NCBI RefSeq assembly: GCF_000406145.1
Contig: NZ_CM001976.1
Span: forward strand, 567,260-599,259
Reading direction: 5' to 3'
DNA length: 32,000 nucleotides
Source: Dickeya dadantii NCPPB 898
GTDB taxonomy: Bacteria; Pseudomonadota; Gammaproteobacteria; Enterobacterales; Enterobacteriaceae
Below are positions 2,555-14,749 of the stretch, in pieces; position 1 is the first letter of the stretch, and each line of letters begins with the position of its first letter. The notes under the pieces were generated by a model, which worked only from the letters and a program-made list of their open reading frames with translations, was not told the DNA's origin and searched no databases. The translations under genes were made by a program, and so were the position numbers.

Positions 2555-4273
2555 TTAGCGCGCCAGCGTCTGTAAGTGCGCGGTAAACGCGGCGGCGTCC
2601 ATGAAGCCGGTCACCCGCGAGCCTGGAATTTCCCGGCCGCTGGCGTCGAAAAACAGAATAGTCGGTAGCCCCAGCACCTGTAGGTGCTGCAATAGCGCTC
2701 GCTGAGTCTCGTTGTTGGCGGTGACATCCGCCTGCAGCCGTTGCATGGCGGACAACGACTGCTGCACCGCCGCATCGCGGAAGGTGTATTTTTCGAACTC
2801 TTTGCAGGCCACGCACCAGTCGGCGTACAGGTCGAGCATGGTGATGCGGTTGTCGCTGCGGTTCAGCGCCGTGGTCAACTGATCCAGCGTGTTGGTCGGC
2901 GTGAAGTGCAACTGGCTGCCGCTGGTCGGTTCCGCCTGTACCGGTGCGAACACCCAGTCCTGTAGCGGTCGGGCCGCCAGCAACGCGCCCAAAAACAGCA
3001 GAATCTGCACGGCTCGCATGCCGCCGGCATGACTGCGCAGACTGAGGGCAAACGCCCAGCCGAAAAACGCCACGCCGAGCAGCCCCCATAAGCGCCACTC
3101 CCAGGTGTCGCCCAGCACCCTGCCCAGCAGAAATACCGGCAGTGCCAGAATCACAAAGCCGAAACCTTCCTTGACGTGAGTCATCCAGGGGCCGCGTTTG
3201 GGCAGCAGCCGATTACCGAACAGGGTAATCGCCATCAGCGGCAGCCCCATGCCCAGCGCATACAAGTACAGTGAGCCGCCGCCGGCCAGCAGGTTGCCGC
3301 TCTGGGCGATGTACAACAGCAACGCGCTGAGCGGCGCGGTGGTGCAGGGCGAGCAAATCAGCCCGGCCAGCGCGCCCATCGCAAATACCCCGGCAGCGGA
3401 GCCGCTCTGCTGGCGATTGCTCCACAGAGTTAGACGCGTTTGCAGGGATGACGGCAACTGCAGGCTATAAACGCCGAACATCGACAGCGCCAGCGCGACA
3501 AACATCACCGACAGCCCGATCAGAACGTAAGGGTGTTGCAGCGCCGCCTGAAAACGCAGACCCGCCGCCGCCACTACCAGGCCGAGCAGGGTGTAGGTCA
3601 GCGCCATCCCCTGCACATACACCAGCGTCAGCAGCAGAGTGCAGCCGGCGGACAGGCGTTGCTGGCGGCCGAGAATCAGCCCGGAAATCAGCGGGTACAT
3701 CGGCAGTACGCAGGGGGTGAAGGCAACGCCAATACCGATGAGCAGCGCCCATAGCGGCGAGAACGGCAACTGCGGGGTATACGCGCGGTCCGGCTGCGGC
3801 GTGACGGCGGCCGGCACCTTGGGTGTCCCGCTACTGATGGCGCTGAGCGGCACCGAACGGGTTTCCGGCGGGTAGCAGAAACCGGCGTCGGCACAGCCCT
3901 GATAGGTGATGCTGAGCGAGGCGCCGGGCGGCACGTCGCGCAAGGGGACATTGAGCGTCAGCGACTGGCGGTAGATTGCCACCTCGCCGAAAAATTCATC
4001 CCGATGTTGTTCTCCGGGCGGCAACGTCAGGCCCGGCGGCGCGATGAGCGCGCTATCCAGCTTGATTTGCTGGCGATACAGGTAATAACCGGGGTGAATT
4101 TGCCAGTTTAACATCAGCCGATCGCCGCGCTGTTGAAAATCGAAGGCAAAAGCCTGATCTACCGGCAGGAACTGAGGCTGTGCGCTGCGACCGAAAGGGT
4201 TTTGCGCCGGCACCAGGGTACTGAAAAACAGGCTGAGGCACAGAACCGTCAGCGTAAAGATGCGTTGAGCCAT
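2555..4273 (-). CDS. dsbD: Thiol:disulfide interchange protein DsbD
   Basis: The protein is full length (572 aa) and similar to E. coli DsbD. Matching motifs include MAQRIFTL..., [25 protein letters not shown] and the C-terminal thioredoxin motif [14 protein letters not shown]. Confidence 0.96.
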
Positions 4274-8810: not shown

Positions 8811-9137
<327 letters not shown>

Positions 9138-9160: not shown

Positions 9161-10834
<1,674 letters not shown>

Positions 10835-11498
10835 TGCGACGAGAGTCGTGTAGGTAGCTAGCCGAGCGGACTACTTCCGTAGTGAACGTATGCGACTGTA
10901 TACGTTCACTATTTCCCGCTAAATTAGCATGAATGTGATAAATGTCCGATGTTCCGGACTTTAAATTCATCCGGAACATTGGCCCTTCGCAAAGCGAAGG
11001 CTAATCTCTGGATGCGACTTTAAAGTCAGTATCCGTTCTAATCTGTTTAAATATTTTATCTTTTTAAATTGTTTGATTTTCAAACAAATACTTAAACTGT
11101 TTAAAACTATTTAACGTCAAGAAAGGTGCACGCCGAAGCAAGCCGCTATCGATTGGTTTGTGATGCAGCGGGGCTAACATCGCCTTTATCTAAATTATGC
11201 GCACTAGCACCTACCGGTGTGAAGCTGTGCTGATGATTGTCTGACTGTATCTATGTTTGGTGCAGAGACAGACCTGTTATGCAACTAACAGTAGCCTAGG
11301 AGCAGCGCGTCACCAGCAATGGTGGGGTGTGAGAGCGCTCTGACAACGTACTCCCTGTTTTTCGGGTGTTGTTTCACCGTGAGGTGAGCAATGGATTTCG
11401 CCAGTAGTAGGTGAATGAGAGGCAAGGCTGGATCATAGGGTTAACGTTAAGTGAACTGCCATAAGCACCGTCAGCCGCAAGCAGCAAAAGCTACTGAT

Positions 11499-11542
11499 AT
11501 GCTGCGACCAAAAGGTACAAGGTCGGCTATTCCTTTTACATC
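11499..11542 (+). other. EBS2 (11499-11505, AUGCUGC) and EBS1 (11537-11542, UACAUC) of intron domain I
   Basis: Pairing to the contiguous exon 13-mer 10821-10833 gives 7 bp (one G.U) and 6 bp. The two sites are about 30 nt apart, as expected for the EBS loops. Confidence 0.7.
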
Positions 11543-11944
11543 TGGGAATACGTTGCCATTAGATCTTCGGTGTATAGGCAGAACCTCAGTGATTCGTGTC
11601 ATTAGTATGGAGCTCGGTAAGCCCGTATTTTTGCCCTCGTGGCAGGTGAGTCGTAAGACGAGCTGTTGAAAATGCGGGTAAAGGAGGTTGGAGAAAGCGA
11701 ATGCCATTCTGTAATGGAATGGATAGGGGGTTAAAGGTTCCTCCACCGGAAACGGGGCAGACTTCCGACTGGTCTTTAATTGCGTGCAGTAATGTAAAGC
11801 AATCTAACGTGACAGAAAGAGATTAAGGGCGGTAGTCAACGCCTCTATTTTTACCCCTGCGGGAGCCGATGACACTCCCGCAGGGGGCTGTCTATCTGTT
11901 ACCACACCGGGCTTTCTGAACAAAGCACAGTGGAGGGTAGCAAG

Positions 11945-13648
11945 ATGAGTACGTTAGTTAGCGTATCTGCGTCCTCCGGCAAGGCGGAGAACTGGCACCG
12001 TATCAATTGGAGTCAGGTTCACCGCCATGTCAGAGGGCTACAGATACGAATCGCAAAGGCAACGGAGCAGAAGCGCTGGCGCAGAGTGAAAGCTCTGCAA
12101 AGGATGCTGATGCGCTCGTTTGCAGCCAAGGCACTGGCTGTCAGGCGGGTTACCGAAAATCGAGGCAAAAAGACAGCCGGAGTGGATCGCCAGTTGTGGA
12201 ACACTCCCGGAAGTAAGTGGCAGGCGATAGGTCAGCTAAAACGGACAGGTTATAAGCCGTCTCCGTTAAGGAGTGTTTACATACCCAAGAGCAACGGCAA
12301 ACGCCGTCCCCTGGGCATACCGACGATGAAAGACAGAGCGATGCAGGCGTTATACCTGTTAGCACTTGACCCCGTCTCGGAAACTAGGGCAGATCGCAAC
12401 AGTTATGGCTTCCGTCCGGCGCGTTCAGCGGCAGATGCGATTGAGCAATGTTTTGTTAATCTCAGTCGTAAAAGCTCTGCTGAATGGGTACTGGAAGGCG
12501 ATATAAAAGAGTGTGTTGACAATATCAGCCATGACTGGTTACTTGCCAACATTCCGTTGGATAAACAGGTACTCGGGAAATGGCTTAAAGCGGGATTCAT
12601 GGAGTCCGGTCGGTTATACCCAACGGAGGCTGGTACACCACAGGGAGGCATTATTTCTCCCGTACTGGCTAATATGGCACTGGATGGACTGGAAGCGGTG
12701 TTAGAAACCCATTTTGGGAAGAAAAACACCAAAGCCAGTTATAAAACCAAGACCAATTTTGTGCGTTATGCAGATGATTTCATCATTACGGGTATCTCGA
12801 TAGAGTTGCTTGTAAATGAAGTCAAACCCCTTGTTGAGGCCTTTATGGCGGAACGAGGGCTGCAATTATCACCCGAAAAAACTGTGATAACGCATATTTC
12901 CGATGGGTTTGATTTTCTGGGGCAGAATGTGCGCAAGTACCACGGCAAAATGCTGATAAAGCCTGCTGCCAAGGGACTGCGTAATCATCTTCAGAAAGTC
13001 CGGCAAATAGTGAAACGTAATGCGGCGTCAAAACAGGGTGACCTGATAAGACAACTTAATCCGGTACTACGGGGTTGGGCTAATTATCATCGTCACATTG
13101 TGGCCAAAGAAACGTTTAGCTATATCGACTATCGCGTCTGGAAATTACTCTGGCGCTGGTCATGCCGACGGCACGGGAATCGCAACAAATACTGGGTGAA
13201 GCAGAGATATTTTCACTCTGTCGGGAGCGATAACTGGGTATTTCAGAGTGTCGATGCGGAAAACGGCCTGCAAAGGTTGGTGTCTTGCAAAGATATCCCG
13301 ATTAAACGTCACATTAAAATCAGGTCTGAGGCTAATCCATACGATCCAGTTGACGAGTTGTACTTCGAGCAGCGGCAAGTTAAGCGCTGGAAAGAAGGTA
13401 AAATGCAGCGAGGAAAACTGAGATTAATTTGGGAGCGACAGGGCCATCGATGTCCGATCTGCCACCAGATATTCAGAGATAATGATGATTGGGATGTCCA
13501 TCACATTATCAGACGAGTAGATGGAGGTGGAGATGAGGCCGATAATTTAATGATGCTGCATCCTAACTGCCACAGATTAATTCATCATGGTGGTAAGGGT
13601 GAGTTGGGGGGGCCAATCCCCCTCCTCGGACTTACCGGATTAGCATAA
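11945..13648 (+). CDS. Group II intron-encoded protein: reverse transcriptase / maturase / HNH endonuclease
   Basis: RT motifs are [30 protein letters not shown] and [12 protein letters not shown]. The maturase X motif is [14 protein letters not shown]. The C-terminal HNH region is CPICHQ...[33 protein letters not shown]. The ATG at 11945 is preceded by GGAGGG at 7 nt, whereas the track ORF starts 5 codons earlier at a GTG. Confidence 0.95.
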
Positions 13649-14059
13649 AGACGATTTTCATCGCCAGTATGATAACCACGGGGTCGATTTCGACTTTTAA
13701 CGTGATAGTCATAGGTGCTCCTTAGGTTGGTGGGTAAAGTAAGAAAATAAAAACGGAAAACCGTTTTATTTTTCAGTTCGTTAGCATGTGTTCAAAAGTG
13801 AGACTTTTTAGTCGAACCTTTAAATCACAAACGCTAGGGGAACTAAGTGCTAGGCAGATATGGCCTGATAACACTACTTTTTCCAACCGCACATGAGAGC
13901 GTCGAAACTGGAGGGATTTTAAATTAACTGATGCTGATGTCAATCCATATAATGGTTTGATTACATGATGATTTTATCTACTTTAAGTGAAGTTATTGCT
14001 TTCATGTTTTTTTACGATGAAAGTAATCTGAGTAGATGACTAGCTATCCGGAGGTAATA

Positions 14060-14302
14060 ATGGGGTTCGTATACGGAAAAGACTATACCGTTTATGATCA
14101 TAGCGGCGATTTACTTGGAACTATCATCGGTGATGAGTTTATCCGTTCAAAAGCTAATAAATTGTTGTGCAGGATAGATGGTGAAGAGATCTATTCTCTT
14201 GATATACCTTGTAAATTACTTGGTTTTATGGATGGTTTACACGGTAAGTCGATTGATGGCTCGATCCTATTCACTCTTGAAAGCGAATCTTCATCTAAAT
14301 AG
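14060..14302 (+). CDS. Hypothetical 80-aa protein with internal ~17-aa repeats, carried inside intron domain IV
   Basis: The start context is GGAGG-taata-ATG. Three clear repeats have an LLGxIxG-type core (DLLGTIIGDE / KLLCRIDGEE / KLLGFMDGLH), plus a weaker fourth (GKSIDGSILF). The ORF sits in an AT-rich insert. No function can be assigned from the sequence alone. Confidence 0.55.
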   Translation: MGFVYGKDYTVYDHSGDLLGTIIGDEFIRSKANKLLCRIDGEEIYSLDIPCKLLGFMDGLHGKSIDGSILFTLESESSSK

Positions 14303-14349
14303 TAATTAACGTTGCCGGCCCAAACAGTAGTGCGGGCTTATAAAGGCTT

Positions 14350-14425
14350 GAGCCGTATGCGGGGAAACTTGCATGTACGGTTCTTAGGGGGGCGGCGGCG
14401 CAGTAATGCGCTGCTGCTACCCGAC
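14350..14425 (+). ncRNA. Group II intron domains V and VI (catalytic core and branch site)
   Basis: Domain V is GAGCCGUAUGCGGGGAAACUUGCAUGUACGGUUC, with the AGC triad, a GAAA loop and a 2-nt bulge. Domain VI has an 11-bp upper stem capped by GUAA, a bulged A at 14419 and 3 G-C pairs below it. The intron ends 6 nt after the branch A. Confidence 0.92.
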
Positions 14426-14476: not shown

Positions 14477-14511
14477 AAAAACTACCCGGCTTCGGCCGGG
14501 TAGTTTTTTTT
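14477..14511 (+). terminator. Rho-independent terminator of the groESL(-intron) transcription unit
   Basis: aaaaa-CTACCCGGC-ttcg-GCCGGGTAG-tttttttt gives a 9-bp GC-rich stem, a UUCG loop and a run of 8 T. It lies 51 nt downstream of the 3' splice site. The A-run upstream makes it potentially bidirectional. Confidence 0.88.
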
Positions 14512-14749
14512 AAGGACCGCAGGAAGCATGGTTAACCGCAAGAACGTACACCATGTGTGATAAGGCTTGTCTATCCACTCGTTTGCAACAGGGTGTGAGC
14601 CTCGCTGATAGGTTGTGTAAAAATCGCTCAAGTCGTTAACACGCGGTTCGGAACCTGTTACCAGCGTACGATTCTTCGCTACAATGAGCATCTGCGCTAC
14701 AATAAGCGCGTTTTATTTTATTTATTAAACACCGGGTGGAATGGGATAC

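Follow-up and report, generated by a model that had tools for sequence, protein, structure and literature searches.

The 32,000-nucleotide (nt) window analysed here (positions 567,260 to 599,259 of contig NZ_CM001976.1, Dickeya dadantii NCPPB 898) contains the heat-shock operon groESL, and within the stop codon of its groEL gene there is a complete group II intron that encodes an intron-encoded protein (IEP). Our subject is a stretch inside domain IV of that intron, lying between the end of the IEP gene and ribozyme domain V, which is likely to be a composite cargo cassette and which carries the gene for an 80-amino-acid (aa) protein, ORF80, on the sense strand of the intron, and a small unit for a hydrophobic 26-codon peptide, ORF26, on the opposite strand. 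The features of the operon and of the intron that are needed to follow the argument are given below.

8844-9137: groES, from gene calls
9188-10834: groEL, after which come ubiC, ubiA and plsB
10834-14425, plus strand: complete group II intron, subgroup IIB1, with a CL1-type IEP, inside the groEL stop codon
11945-13648, plus strand: gene for the IEP, with reverse transcriptase, maturase and HNH endonuclease (TIGR04416, Pfam)
13585-14310, unstranded: cargo of variable sequence within the terminal domain IV loop, drawn from the break and resumption of homology and from relatives with an empty slot
14050-14302, plus strand: Shine-Dalgarno sequence GGAGG (14050-14054) and ORF80 (14060-14302), for an 80-aa four-hairpin, beta-flower-like protein
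14311-14349, plus strand: 3' strand that closes domain IV (GTTGCCGG), then a small hairpin and the linker CTTATAAAGGCTTG, kept in cargo-bearing and empty introns
14350-14425, plus strand: ribozyme domains V and VI (RF00029, 60.6 bits; 93-98% identity among copies)

The intron splits the groEL stop codon between positions 2 and 3 (TA/G...intron.../A). Its 5' end, GTGCGAC, begins at the G of the groEL TAG (10834), its 3' end is CTACCCGAC and the next base is A14426; the junctions as a whole read ...GGMGGMM-TA/GTGCGAC...CTACCCGAC/A, a pattern identical to the one given in Gomes et al. 2025 (PMC12584367). That paper places the Escherichia coli intron EcKTE56.groEL in a specialised IIB1 clade that targets positions 2/3 of the groEL stop codon, and it describes for this clade a large insertion near the 5' end, subdomain Ia (300-700 nt), at the domain I base, for the E. 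coli intron an efficient retrotransposition with expression from the groESL promoter, and for the gammaproteobacteria at large many variants of the intron. The intron of the window belongs to this already known clade. Its ribozyme is recognised by the Rfam models RF02012 (D1D4-7; 11273-11422, 97.4 bits against a gathering score of 34) and RF00029 (Intron_gpII, domains V-VI; 14348-14425, gathering score 40), and its IEP scores 369.6 bits with TIGR04416 (cut-off 300, E=1.6e-110) and carries the Pfam domains RVT_N, RVT_1, GIIM and HNH above threshold. Some 1110 nt of the intron lie upstream of the IEP start, and they contain, in the place expected for subdomain Ia, an AT-rich stretch (~10860-11160; G+C 0.37) that is poorly conserved, with 58-72% identity among copies, and varies almost like the cargo slot; this stretch is a candidate counterpart of the clade's subdomain Ia insertion, to which it appears to correspond. 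Immediately 3' of the intron there is a strong hairpin with a T-run (14481-14512; CCCGGCTTCGGCCGGG followed by TAG and eight T). It is presumably the original terminator of groESL and now stands 3.6 kb away from groEL.

A preliminary description of this DNA had drawn attention to a gap of about 700 nt between the IEP stop and domain V, had judged it low in G+C, and had taken the stretch 13649-14349 for a secondary insertion, i.e., a passenger gene that rides on a mobile intron within the groESL operon. The gap is as described, reaching from the IEP stop at 13648 to domain V at 14350, and so is the composition: G+C is 0.283 at 13921-14040, 0.379 for 13649-14349 and 0.38-0.40 for the variable segment, as compared to 0.485 for the IEP gene, 0.563 for groEL and 0.55 for the whole window. 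The limits first assigned to the insertion were nearly right and can now be adjusted, since comparison among copies puts the left boundary at ~13585-13605, within the last IEP codons, and the right boundary at 14310; homology to the sister intron of E. coli is lost at ~13585 and regained at ~14308. The segment is thus bordered by the end of the HNH domain on its left and by the 3' closing strand of domain IV on its right. The right junction is the same in all groEL introns, where the stop codon of the cargo is followed by GTYGCYGG (the domain IV closing strand), a small hairpin, CTTATAAAGGCTTG and domain V, and in empty introns the IEP reading frame itself enters the stem, with the IEP stop, GTYGCTGG, the hairpin, CTTATAAAGGCTTG and domain V following directly. 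This constant junction, together with the way in which the IEP of empty introns runs into the stem, places the cargo in the terminal loop of domain IV. The final ~15-21 codons of the IEP come from cargo DNA, their number depending on where within 13585-13605 the left boundary is set, and a run of G residues at 13604-13612, which counts 5-7 G depending on the copy, changes the C-terminal frame and the length of the tail. These last ~15-21 residues differ completely among lineages through the frame shift at the G-run, and they are probably dispensable read-through into cargo DNA.

With blastn, the whole segment (13585-14310) was matched neither in the 5,426 E. coli genomes nor in the 72,556 plasmids searched, and the left module (13585-13945) had no match in 50,697 phage records; an Rfam scan returned the intron's own domain V only, and a repeat search returned nothing beyond short AT-rich matches at chance level. 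The suspicion that it might turn out to be a known insertion sequence (IS) or miniature inverted-repeat transposable element (MITE) was accordingly not borne out within the searches run, which yielded no IS, MITE, plasmid or phage DNA match. Two long-range inverted repeats of the plus strand, I1 and I2, were discarded; both are AT-rich and they cross each other.

What the slot holds in other introns was determined by comparison with ~90 related loci, and in 80 loci that encode IEP relatives the spacing between the IEP stop codon and domain V was measured where possible. In measurable relatives with 60% IEP identity or less this distance is 0-46 nt, the exceptions being two frameshifted IEP reading frames at 150 and 458 nt. 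The closer clade (L010-L035) consists of 26 groEL-type loci, every checked member of which lies in a groEL stop codon, and its distances are 210-833 nt in 20 loci and 22-74 nt in the four near-empty slots of Tolumonas, Zobellella, Vibrio metschnikovii and Motilimonas, with two loci unmeasured. Relatives with and without a segment at this position, which are what the idea of a passenger called for, have therefore both been found. A related intron at the same groEL site is also present in 2 of 5,426 complete E. coli genomes, with 88% nt identity over the shared backbone. The slot of the E. coli 23AR1101 intron (L001, NZ_CM132250) has DUF2188 where the window has ORF80, in the form of a 74-aa protein (WP_001556379.1; L001 6605-6829) that matches PDC-S16 of PADLOC over its full length (E=2e-38), PDC-S16 being listed there as a candidate phage-defence family only. 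The published EcKTE56.groEL intron is probably similar to the one in 23AR1101, and the assays made with it may already include a DUF2188 passenger. The sister intron with its DUF2188 gene and the empty slots of other relatives uphold the early notion of a passenger gene; the accompanying premise that bacterial introns carry an IEP only is sound in general, but in this clade cargo is the rule.

The genes found in the slots of other groEL introns are almost all plus-strand reading frames. They include DUF2188 (E. coli, Vibrio penaeicida, Reinekea), DUF1508 (Vibrio mimicus, Reinekea), a lambda Ea8.5-related protein (three loci), a 157-160-aa membrane protein (Phaseolibacter, Glaciecola), proteins of 113-116 aa with a C-terminal membrane anchor and, in several marine groEL introns, plus-strand frames for hydrophobic peptides of 37-67 aa with basic C-terminal tails (e.g., MDQIQLLVVGLLALSFIILFGGIYWVIDNHEKQKRGNKIH; L019 2827-2949, L027 6266-6397, L018 5721-5924 and 5964-6077). 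Small membrane peptides therefore seem to be a recurrent kind of cargo, beyond the antisense ORF26 of the window. Two-gene cassettes occur in Reinekea blandensis (L032 5807-6251), with DUF1508 and DUF2188, and in V. penaeicida (L025 5729-6184), with DUF2188 and then a 75-aa homologue of ORF80, and they suggest that groEL introns shuffle one common stock of small genes as modules. The contents of the slot are typical accessory genes of mobile elements, and the comparison as a whole identifies the segment of the window as cargo, in a slot that is empty in some relatives and filled with unrelated small genes in others. The literature open to search, which is incomplete (the Costa laboratory has announced further work), yielded no report of a bacterial group II intron with natural extra reading frames or cargo, and nothing relevant on DUF2188 in connection with group II introns or on PDC-S16.

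Copies of ORF80 with at least 90% identity are present in Serratia, Dickeya, Klebsiella, Raoultella and Yersinia; the copy in Salmonella salamae is 90% and that in Morganella 86% identical, and an allele at 65% is shared by Klebsiella, Proteus, Providencia and Lonsdalea. All copies that were inspected (those of Salmonella and Morganella and the contigs with the 65% allele) lie in the groEL intron, the remaining genera being known from cluster annotation only. The relatedness of the cargo does not follow that of its vehicle: the window and L103 have IEPs that are 92% identical and cargo that is 98-100% identical, whereas the window and L090 have IEPs that are 91% identical and cargo that is 64-74% identical. 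This discord implies different histories for the two parts and points to recombination between the conserved flanks. Salmonella enterica subsp. salamae carries a fossil of the groEL intron (L004/L005 3645-6365), the first base of which is A rather than G. About 25 nt of its 5' end are left, domains I-III and the N-terminus of the IEP are lost, an unrelated stretch of ~440 nt (3660-4100) replaces the lost domains, and what remains of the IEP is interrupted by a stop codon. Undamaged copies of ORF80 (94% nt identity), of ORF26 and of domains V-VI are still present in each of four independent assemblies.

ORF80 itself has the start context GGAGG, TAATA, ATG, in keeping with the reading frame (14060-14302) and the GGAGG-N5-ATG arrangement given in the preliminary description, and its exact protein is WP_038910187.1 of D. 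dadantii, annotated as hypothetical. The internal repeats of ~17 aa that had also been noticed are four in number (DYTVYDHSGDLLGTIIGD, EFIRSKANKLLCRIDGE, EIYSLDIPCKLLGFMDGL and HGKSIDGSILFTLESES), and they coincide with the four beta-hairpins, eight strands in all, of an AlphaFold2 model (pLDDT 89.8, pTM 0.75). The family to which the protein belongs has 28 representatives at 50% clustering by exhaustive profile search and at least 144 clusters at 90% by indexed search, most of them 67-85 aa long and all annotated as hypothetical. Homologues at 30-65% identity retain the length and the motifs, with the consensus G-x-I-D-G-D-E-F-[IV]-R ... L-Y-R-I-D-G-x-E-[IV]-Y ... L-G-x-[IMLF]-[DE]-G ... L-F, and conservation of the protein down to 30-50% identity removes the doubt, raised at the outset, that the frame might not be conserved at all. 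Among close copies dN/dS is ~0.5, with few substitutions. A search of PDB with ORF80 gave nothing, and tblastn gave no match in the 50,697 phage records or the 72,556 plasmids.

In a beta-flower, 8, 10 or 12 short strands, antiparallel to one another, form 4, 5 or 6 hairpin petals and close into a shallow barrel. The resemblance of ORF80 to proteins of this kind (PF21784, PF21785, PF21786, clan CL0395; PMC10584680) lies in its short length and its repeated, predicted beta-hairpin 'petals', and many members of its family give weak matches to the 4-fold and 5-fold models. ORF80 scores 16.7 bits with PF21785 (cut-off 38) and its best relative, P0017, scores 24.5 bits with PF21784, just below 25; at E<0.01 a PF21785 match is obtained for 10 and a PF21784 match for 9 of 26 family members, and six homologues have a PF21785 hit among precomputed Pfam domains, where significance relative to the Pfam threshold is not given. 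ORF80 differs from the established beta-flowers in that its matches stay below the gathering thresholds, that it covers only about the first half of PF21784 and that it has neither a C-terminal hydrophobic helix nor a lipoprotein signal; because the PF21784 alignment spans only model positions 3-64 of 116, the family is taken to be without the C-terminal part of that model. With regard to the [DNEQ]xxG motif, DHSG (residues 13-16) fits and the other turns read D-G or G-D/E (IIGDE, RIDGEE, FMDGL, SIDGS). The likeness to '4-fold beta flower' proteins proposed in the preliminary description is thus supported by sub-threshold resemblance to PF21785 and PF21784 and by the four-hairpin model, and gains nothing from NCBIfam, which has no match, and hence no such name, for ORF80 or 26 relatives. 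Durairaj et al. 2023 (PMC10584680) report the beta-flower fold as one without known function and note that many beta-flowers enclose a hydrophobic helix. Taken together, these data indicate that ORF80 is a genuine gene and a member of a beta-flower-like family that recurs as intron cargo.

At least four lineages of groEL introns (L025, L090, L105 and that of the window) have a homologue of ORF80 as cargo. Outside introns, a 74-aa member of the family (P0012; L104 1253-1477) is embedded as an accessory gene in a BREX system, where only 13 and 6 nt separate it from its neighbours brxC and pglX, and others lie beside C5 and N4/N6 DNA methylases (L096), within a prophage (L114) and within a P4-like integrative island of Pseudomonas (L115). 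These non-intron relatives thus represent four kinds of context, all of them accessory or conflict regions of mobile elements. ORF80 appears to have no private promoter, given that the region upstream of it is just 62-65% identical among lineages and that spacing is tight in the marine contig L105, where the homologue begins 27 nt past the IEP stop, and in L025, where it begins 3 nt past the preceding gene. The promoter proposed for it earlier, TTGATT (13957-13962), 16 nt and TACTTT (13979-13984), does exist as a string of letters, but it agrees with the consensus at 4/6 and 3/6 positions, is missed by a promoter scan and is unconserved in the Salmonella and L090 copies, and we regard it as a chance-level match. 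An alternative on the plus strand, TTAACT-18-TATAAT (13924-13953; 10 of 12 consensus positions), is poorly conserved and was likewise rejected.

The segment is composite, and the earlier picture of cargo with a single reading frame, correct insofar as ORF80 is real, overlooked a toxin-like module on the minus strand of its left half. That module comprises a promoter-like site, a structured leader and ORF26, with two hairpins.

13592-13636, unstranded: G+C-rich imperfect hairpin GGTAAG...GGGGG-CCAAT-CCCCC...CTTACC, which includes the ORF26 stop codon and lies past the frame on the minus strand
13632-13712, minus strand: ORF26, gene for a hydrophobic 26-codon peptide; conserved frame with AAGGAG (13723-13718) five nt before the ATG
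13713-13909, minus strand: structured 5' leader of the minus-strand transcript, from fold statistics and compensatory changes
13743-13774, unstranded: AT-rich terminator- or attenuator-like hairpin AAAACGG-loop-CCGTTTT in the ORF26 leader, with T-runs on both strands
13916-13943, minus strand: sigma-70-like promoter TTGACA-16 nt-TAAAAT directed toward ORF26 (11 of 12 consensus positions), predicted start near 13909

ATTGACA is invariant in all four lineages that carry the module, and the -10 element is TAAAAT or TAATAT, even where the flanks are ~70% identical; a promoter scan of the segment gives two hits against a shuffled mean of 2.8, i.e., no excess. The ATG of ORF26 lies ~195 nt past this site, and the 5' end of the leader (13908-13896) is predicted to pair with the Shine-Dalgarno sequence GGAGC (13721-13717) and with codons 7-9 (13694-13687). 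The RNA from ~13909 to 13585 has a minimum-free-energy z-score of -5.56 against shuffles. A consensus fold, drawn from six sequences of four lineages with the structure predicted on the same alignment, has 82 pairs with 96.1% of cells paired and eight pairs with compensatory changes, a result that none of 500 shuffles reached and that compares with 33-43% of cells paired in slid-partner controls. One compensatory pair (GC to UA) falls in the helix that sequesters the Shine-Dalgarno sequence and five fall in an internal hairpin, and the ~48 G.U cells against ~8 A.C cells favour the minus strand as the one that bears the structure. The hairpin at 13592-13636 is helix 11 of this fold and is kept in all lineages; it is no canonical terminator, because a U-tract is absent after it. 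The one at 13743-13774 is predicted on both strands and is retained with different loops in the Salmonella and L090 copies. An Rfam match to ohsC over the same interval (19.3 bits against a gathering score of 50, E=4.1) was taken as noise.

ORF26 is intact, with 26 codons, in four lineages (Dickeya/L103, Morganella, Salmonella salamae and L090-L093). Its substitutions are mostly conservative (V/I, M/L, V/A, F/I, I/M), its mean Kyte-Doolittle hydropathy is 1.66 and its dN/dS is 0.3-0.8, with few changes. In size and hydropathy it suits a type I toxin, for which the bound on length is ~60 aa. It has no Pfam or NCBIfam match, no Rfam family reaches threshold for the module, tblastn against plasmids found none, and metagenomes scanned with a degenerate DNA pattern yielded a single near-identical copy of the intron and a single chance hit. 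The mRNAs of type I toxins encode a hydrophobic peptide and have a structured leader that closes the ribosome-binding site; in shoB-ohsC, zorO-orzO and tisB-istR the peptide has ~19-35 aa, the 5' leader ~200 nt, and the 5' end closes the ribosome-binding site. The ORF26 module is like these in its hydrophobic peptide, its leader length and the predicted closure of the ribosome-binding site by the 5' end. It is unlike them in that it belongs to none of them by sequence or covariance model (ohsC 19 bits vs 50), in that no dedicated small RNA (sRNA) antitoxin was found, and in that it lies antisense within an intron whose transcript, fully complementary by geometry, is the only evident antisense RNA. 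We conclude that a conserved, structured minus-strand unit is predicted to encode a hydrophobic peptide, and by analogy the unit resembles a type I toxin. Elsewhere in the window, and unconnected to the cargo, there is a tRNA gene on the minus strand (1652-1724; Rfam 68.3 bits), probably for tRNA-Phe because its anticodon loop reads GAA.

How the intron compares with others of its kind can be judged from EcKTE56.groEL and Avi.groEL, which (PMC12584367; Michel et al. 2007 as cited there) have the same insertion between stop-codon positions 2 and 3, with TAA changed to TAG, and likewise a CL1-type IEP with an endonuclease domain and a large AT-rich 5' subdomain Ia. The backbone of the window intron is 88% nt-identical to the E. 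coli representative of the EcKTE56.groEL type. The published description of EcKTE56.groEL, as far as its text was read and term-searched, names no frame but that of the reverse transcriptase in domain IV, whereas the window intron and most of the relatives surveyed here have extra small genes as well, and the window intron has an antisense gene there too. Foreign genes placed in the domain IV loop of the Ll.LtrB intron reach the target site by retrohoming (PMC2518211), and these targetrons share with the window intron the position of the cargo and the logic of ribozyme tolerance; they are laboratory constructs in a IIA intron, whereas the window intron, of type IIB1 and with its IEP in cis, has natural cargo that has been maintained and exchanged in evolution. 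Phage morons, integron cassettes and the defence hotspots of satellites are also comparable, as small AT-rich, promoter-poor accessory genes, of obscure or conflict-related function, that occupy a fixed slot between conserved flanks, vary among close relatives and are driven by an upstream promoter. The cargo of the window intron differs from all of these in that its vehicle is a retroelement copied via RNA, that there is no integrase or attC-like site, and that exchange would take place by homologous recombination from one intron to another.

We think it likely that a IIB1 intron of the groEL stop codon carries this segment in the loop of its domain IV as a cargo cassette of composite make-up, and that the cassette works in the following manner. 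The extra ~720 nt would be borne without harm since domain IV points away from the catalytic core. The cassette would share the transcript of groESL and the intron, retrohoming would copy it as part of the intron RNA, and the intron would therefore be its vehicle; the introns of this clade do appear, from the comparison of their sequences, to ferry cargo. Cassettes would be swapped by homologous recombination, for which the 3' end of the IEP on one side and the domain IV stem plus domain V on the other could serve as flanks. ORF80 would be translated from its own strong ribosome-binding site on the read-through transcript driven by the heat-shock operon, with no private promoter. That ORF80 is a moron-like accessory gene in phage-host or mobile-element conflict is a tentative proposal, to which we give somewhat less than an even chance, and opinion is evenly balanced on whether the minus-strand unit encodes a type I-toxin-like membrane peptide. 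If it does, base pairing between the 5' end of the ORF26 mRNA and the ribosome-binding site would keep that mRNA closed to translation, and ORF26 would be repressed in antisense by the groESL-intron RNA, which is complementary to the whole of that mRNA.

Several points weigh against this account. All of its functional steps are inferred from sequence. No model of PADLOC-DB v2 is matched by ORF80 or its family, a PHROGs search left ORF80 itself unmatched and gave three weak hits only, the Pfam match is below threshold and NCBIfam has none, and the dN/dS of ORF80 indicates moderate constraint only, on few substitutions. The conflict-gene interpretation draws on five non-intron contexts, and PDC-S16 is a candidate family. 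Cargo that is more identical than its backbone could mean constraint instead of recombination. Support for the RNA fold is inflated because the structure was predicted on the alignment used to test it; no promoter and terminator pair for a separate antitoxin sRNA was identified at the locus; and a strong convergent promoter with a terminator-like hairpin inside the intron might impair the synthesis of full-length intron RNA.

The cassette might instead serve mainly to stabilise the intron as an addiction module, an explanation that overlaps with ours. ORF26 would then be a toxin with a stable mRNA, the antidote would be the intron/groESL transcript or an ORF80 protein that binds the peptide, and a cell that lost or silenced the intron would die. 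The type I-toxin-like architecture of the minus-strand unit is what such a module would have, ORF26 and ORF80 occur together in all four enterobacterial lineages and both persist in the fossil Salmonella intron, and the ORF80 family is without that part of PF21784 which ORF26 could in principle replace by providing a helix in trans (PMC10584680). Against this, ORF80 homologues are found as cargo without ORF26 (L025, L105) and also outside introns, most groEL introns have other cargo and some have none, a four-fold barrel is possibly too narrow for a helix, and survival of the pair in a dead intron speaks against a role purely in intron maintenance; we consider addiction as the main function rather unlikely. 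The fossil bears as well on the thought that ORF80 assists the intron in splicing, ribonucleoprotein stability or retrohoming, since there the gene has outlasted the intron's capacity for splicing and movement. The location of ORF80 immediately 3' of the IEP, on the same strand and co-transcribed, and the presence of beta-flower cargo in several groEL introns would suit an accessory factor of this sort, but the slot of sister introns is either vacant or taken by unrelated genes, some members of the family belong to BREX, prophage and island settings where there is no intron, and the E. coli groEL intron stripped of most of its domain IV content is, according to PMC12584367, highly mobile when reverse transcriptase is supplied, which leaves this role very unlikely.

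It is also conceivable that the segment is accidentally captured foreign DNA with unexpressed or useless reading frames, which domain IV merely tolerates. The dN/dS values of ORF80 and ORF26, the lack of known function for the families involved and the AT-rich, foreign composition all accord with a neutral hitchhiker. Such a hitchhiker would not be expected to keep ORF80 and ORF26 intact in four lineages, one degraded intron included, to belong to a protein family of at least 144 clusters with conserved motifs and a confident fold, to show compensatory base changes in a leader and an invariant promoter amid ~70% flanking identity, or to find its slot occupied in ~20 of 26 groEL introns, and we hold neutrality to be quite unlikely. 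Transposition of an independent element (an IS fragment, a MITE or a nested intron) into domain IV seems extremely unlikely. The composition differs from the surroundings and there are some short inverted repeats, as such an element might leave, but a transposase and significant terminal repeats are absent, the searches described above found the segment in no E. coli genome or plasmid, its left module in no phage and ORF80 in neither phages nor plasmids, Rfam shows only the intron's own domain V, and the metagenome scan shows only the near-identical intron copy.

Bacterial group II introns are currently viewed as minimal selfish retroelements that carry a reverse transcriptase only, and domain IV cargo as an engineering device of targetrons. 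That picture would be changed by a clade whose members mostly carry diverse, exchangeable small genes driven by groESL, among them a phage-defence candidate family, a beta-flower protein and toxin-like peptides, and both DUF2188 and the beta-flower fold would gain from it a tractable genetic setting. In its broadest form, which is speculative and which we regard as doubtful, the proposal is that groEL introns are natural gene-delivery vehicles, with an exchangeable domain IV slot, that spread small conflict genes (for defence, anti-defence or toxins) among gammaproteobacteria and express them from the heat-shock promoter of the essential groESL operon, here together with an antisense toxin whose antidote would be the intron RNA. 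Because an efficient retrohoming assay in E. coli exists for the sister intron (PMC12584367), these ideas are directly testable. If they are correct, these introns would constitute an unrecognised horizontal route for accessory genes; an intron-RNA antidote would tie the survival of the cell to ongoing transcription of a retroelement, and there would be a hint as to how such introns pay for their residence in an essential operon.

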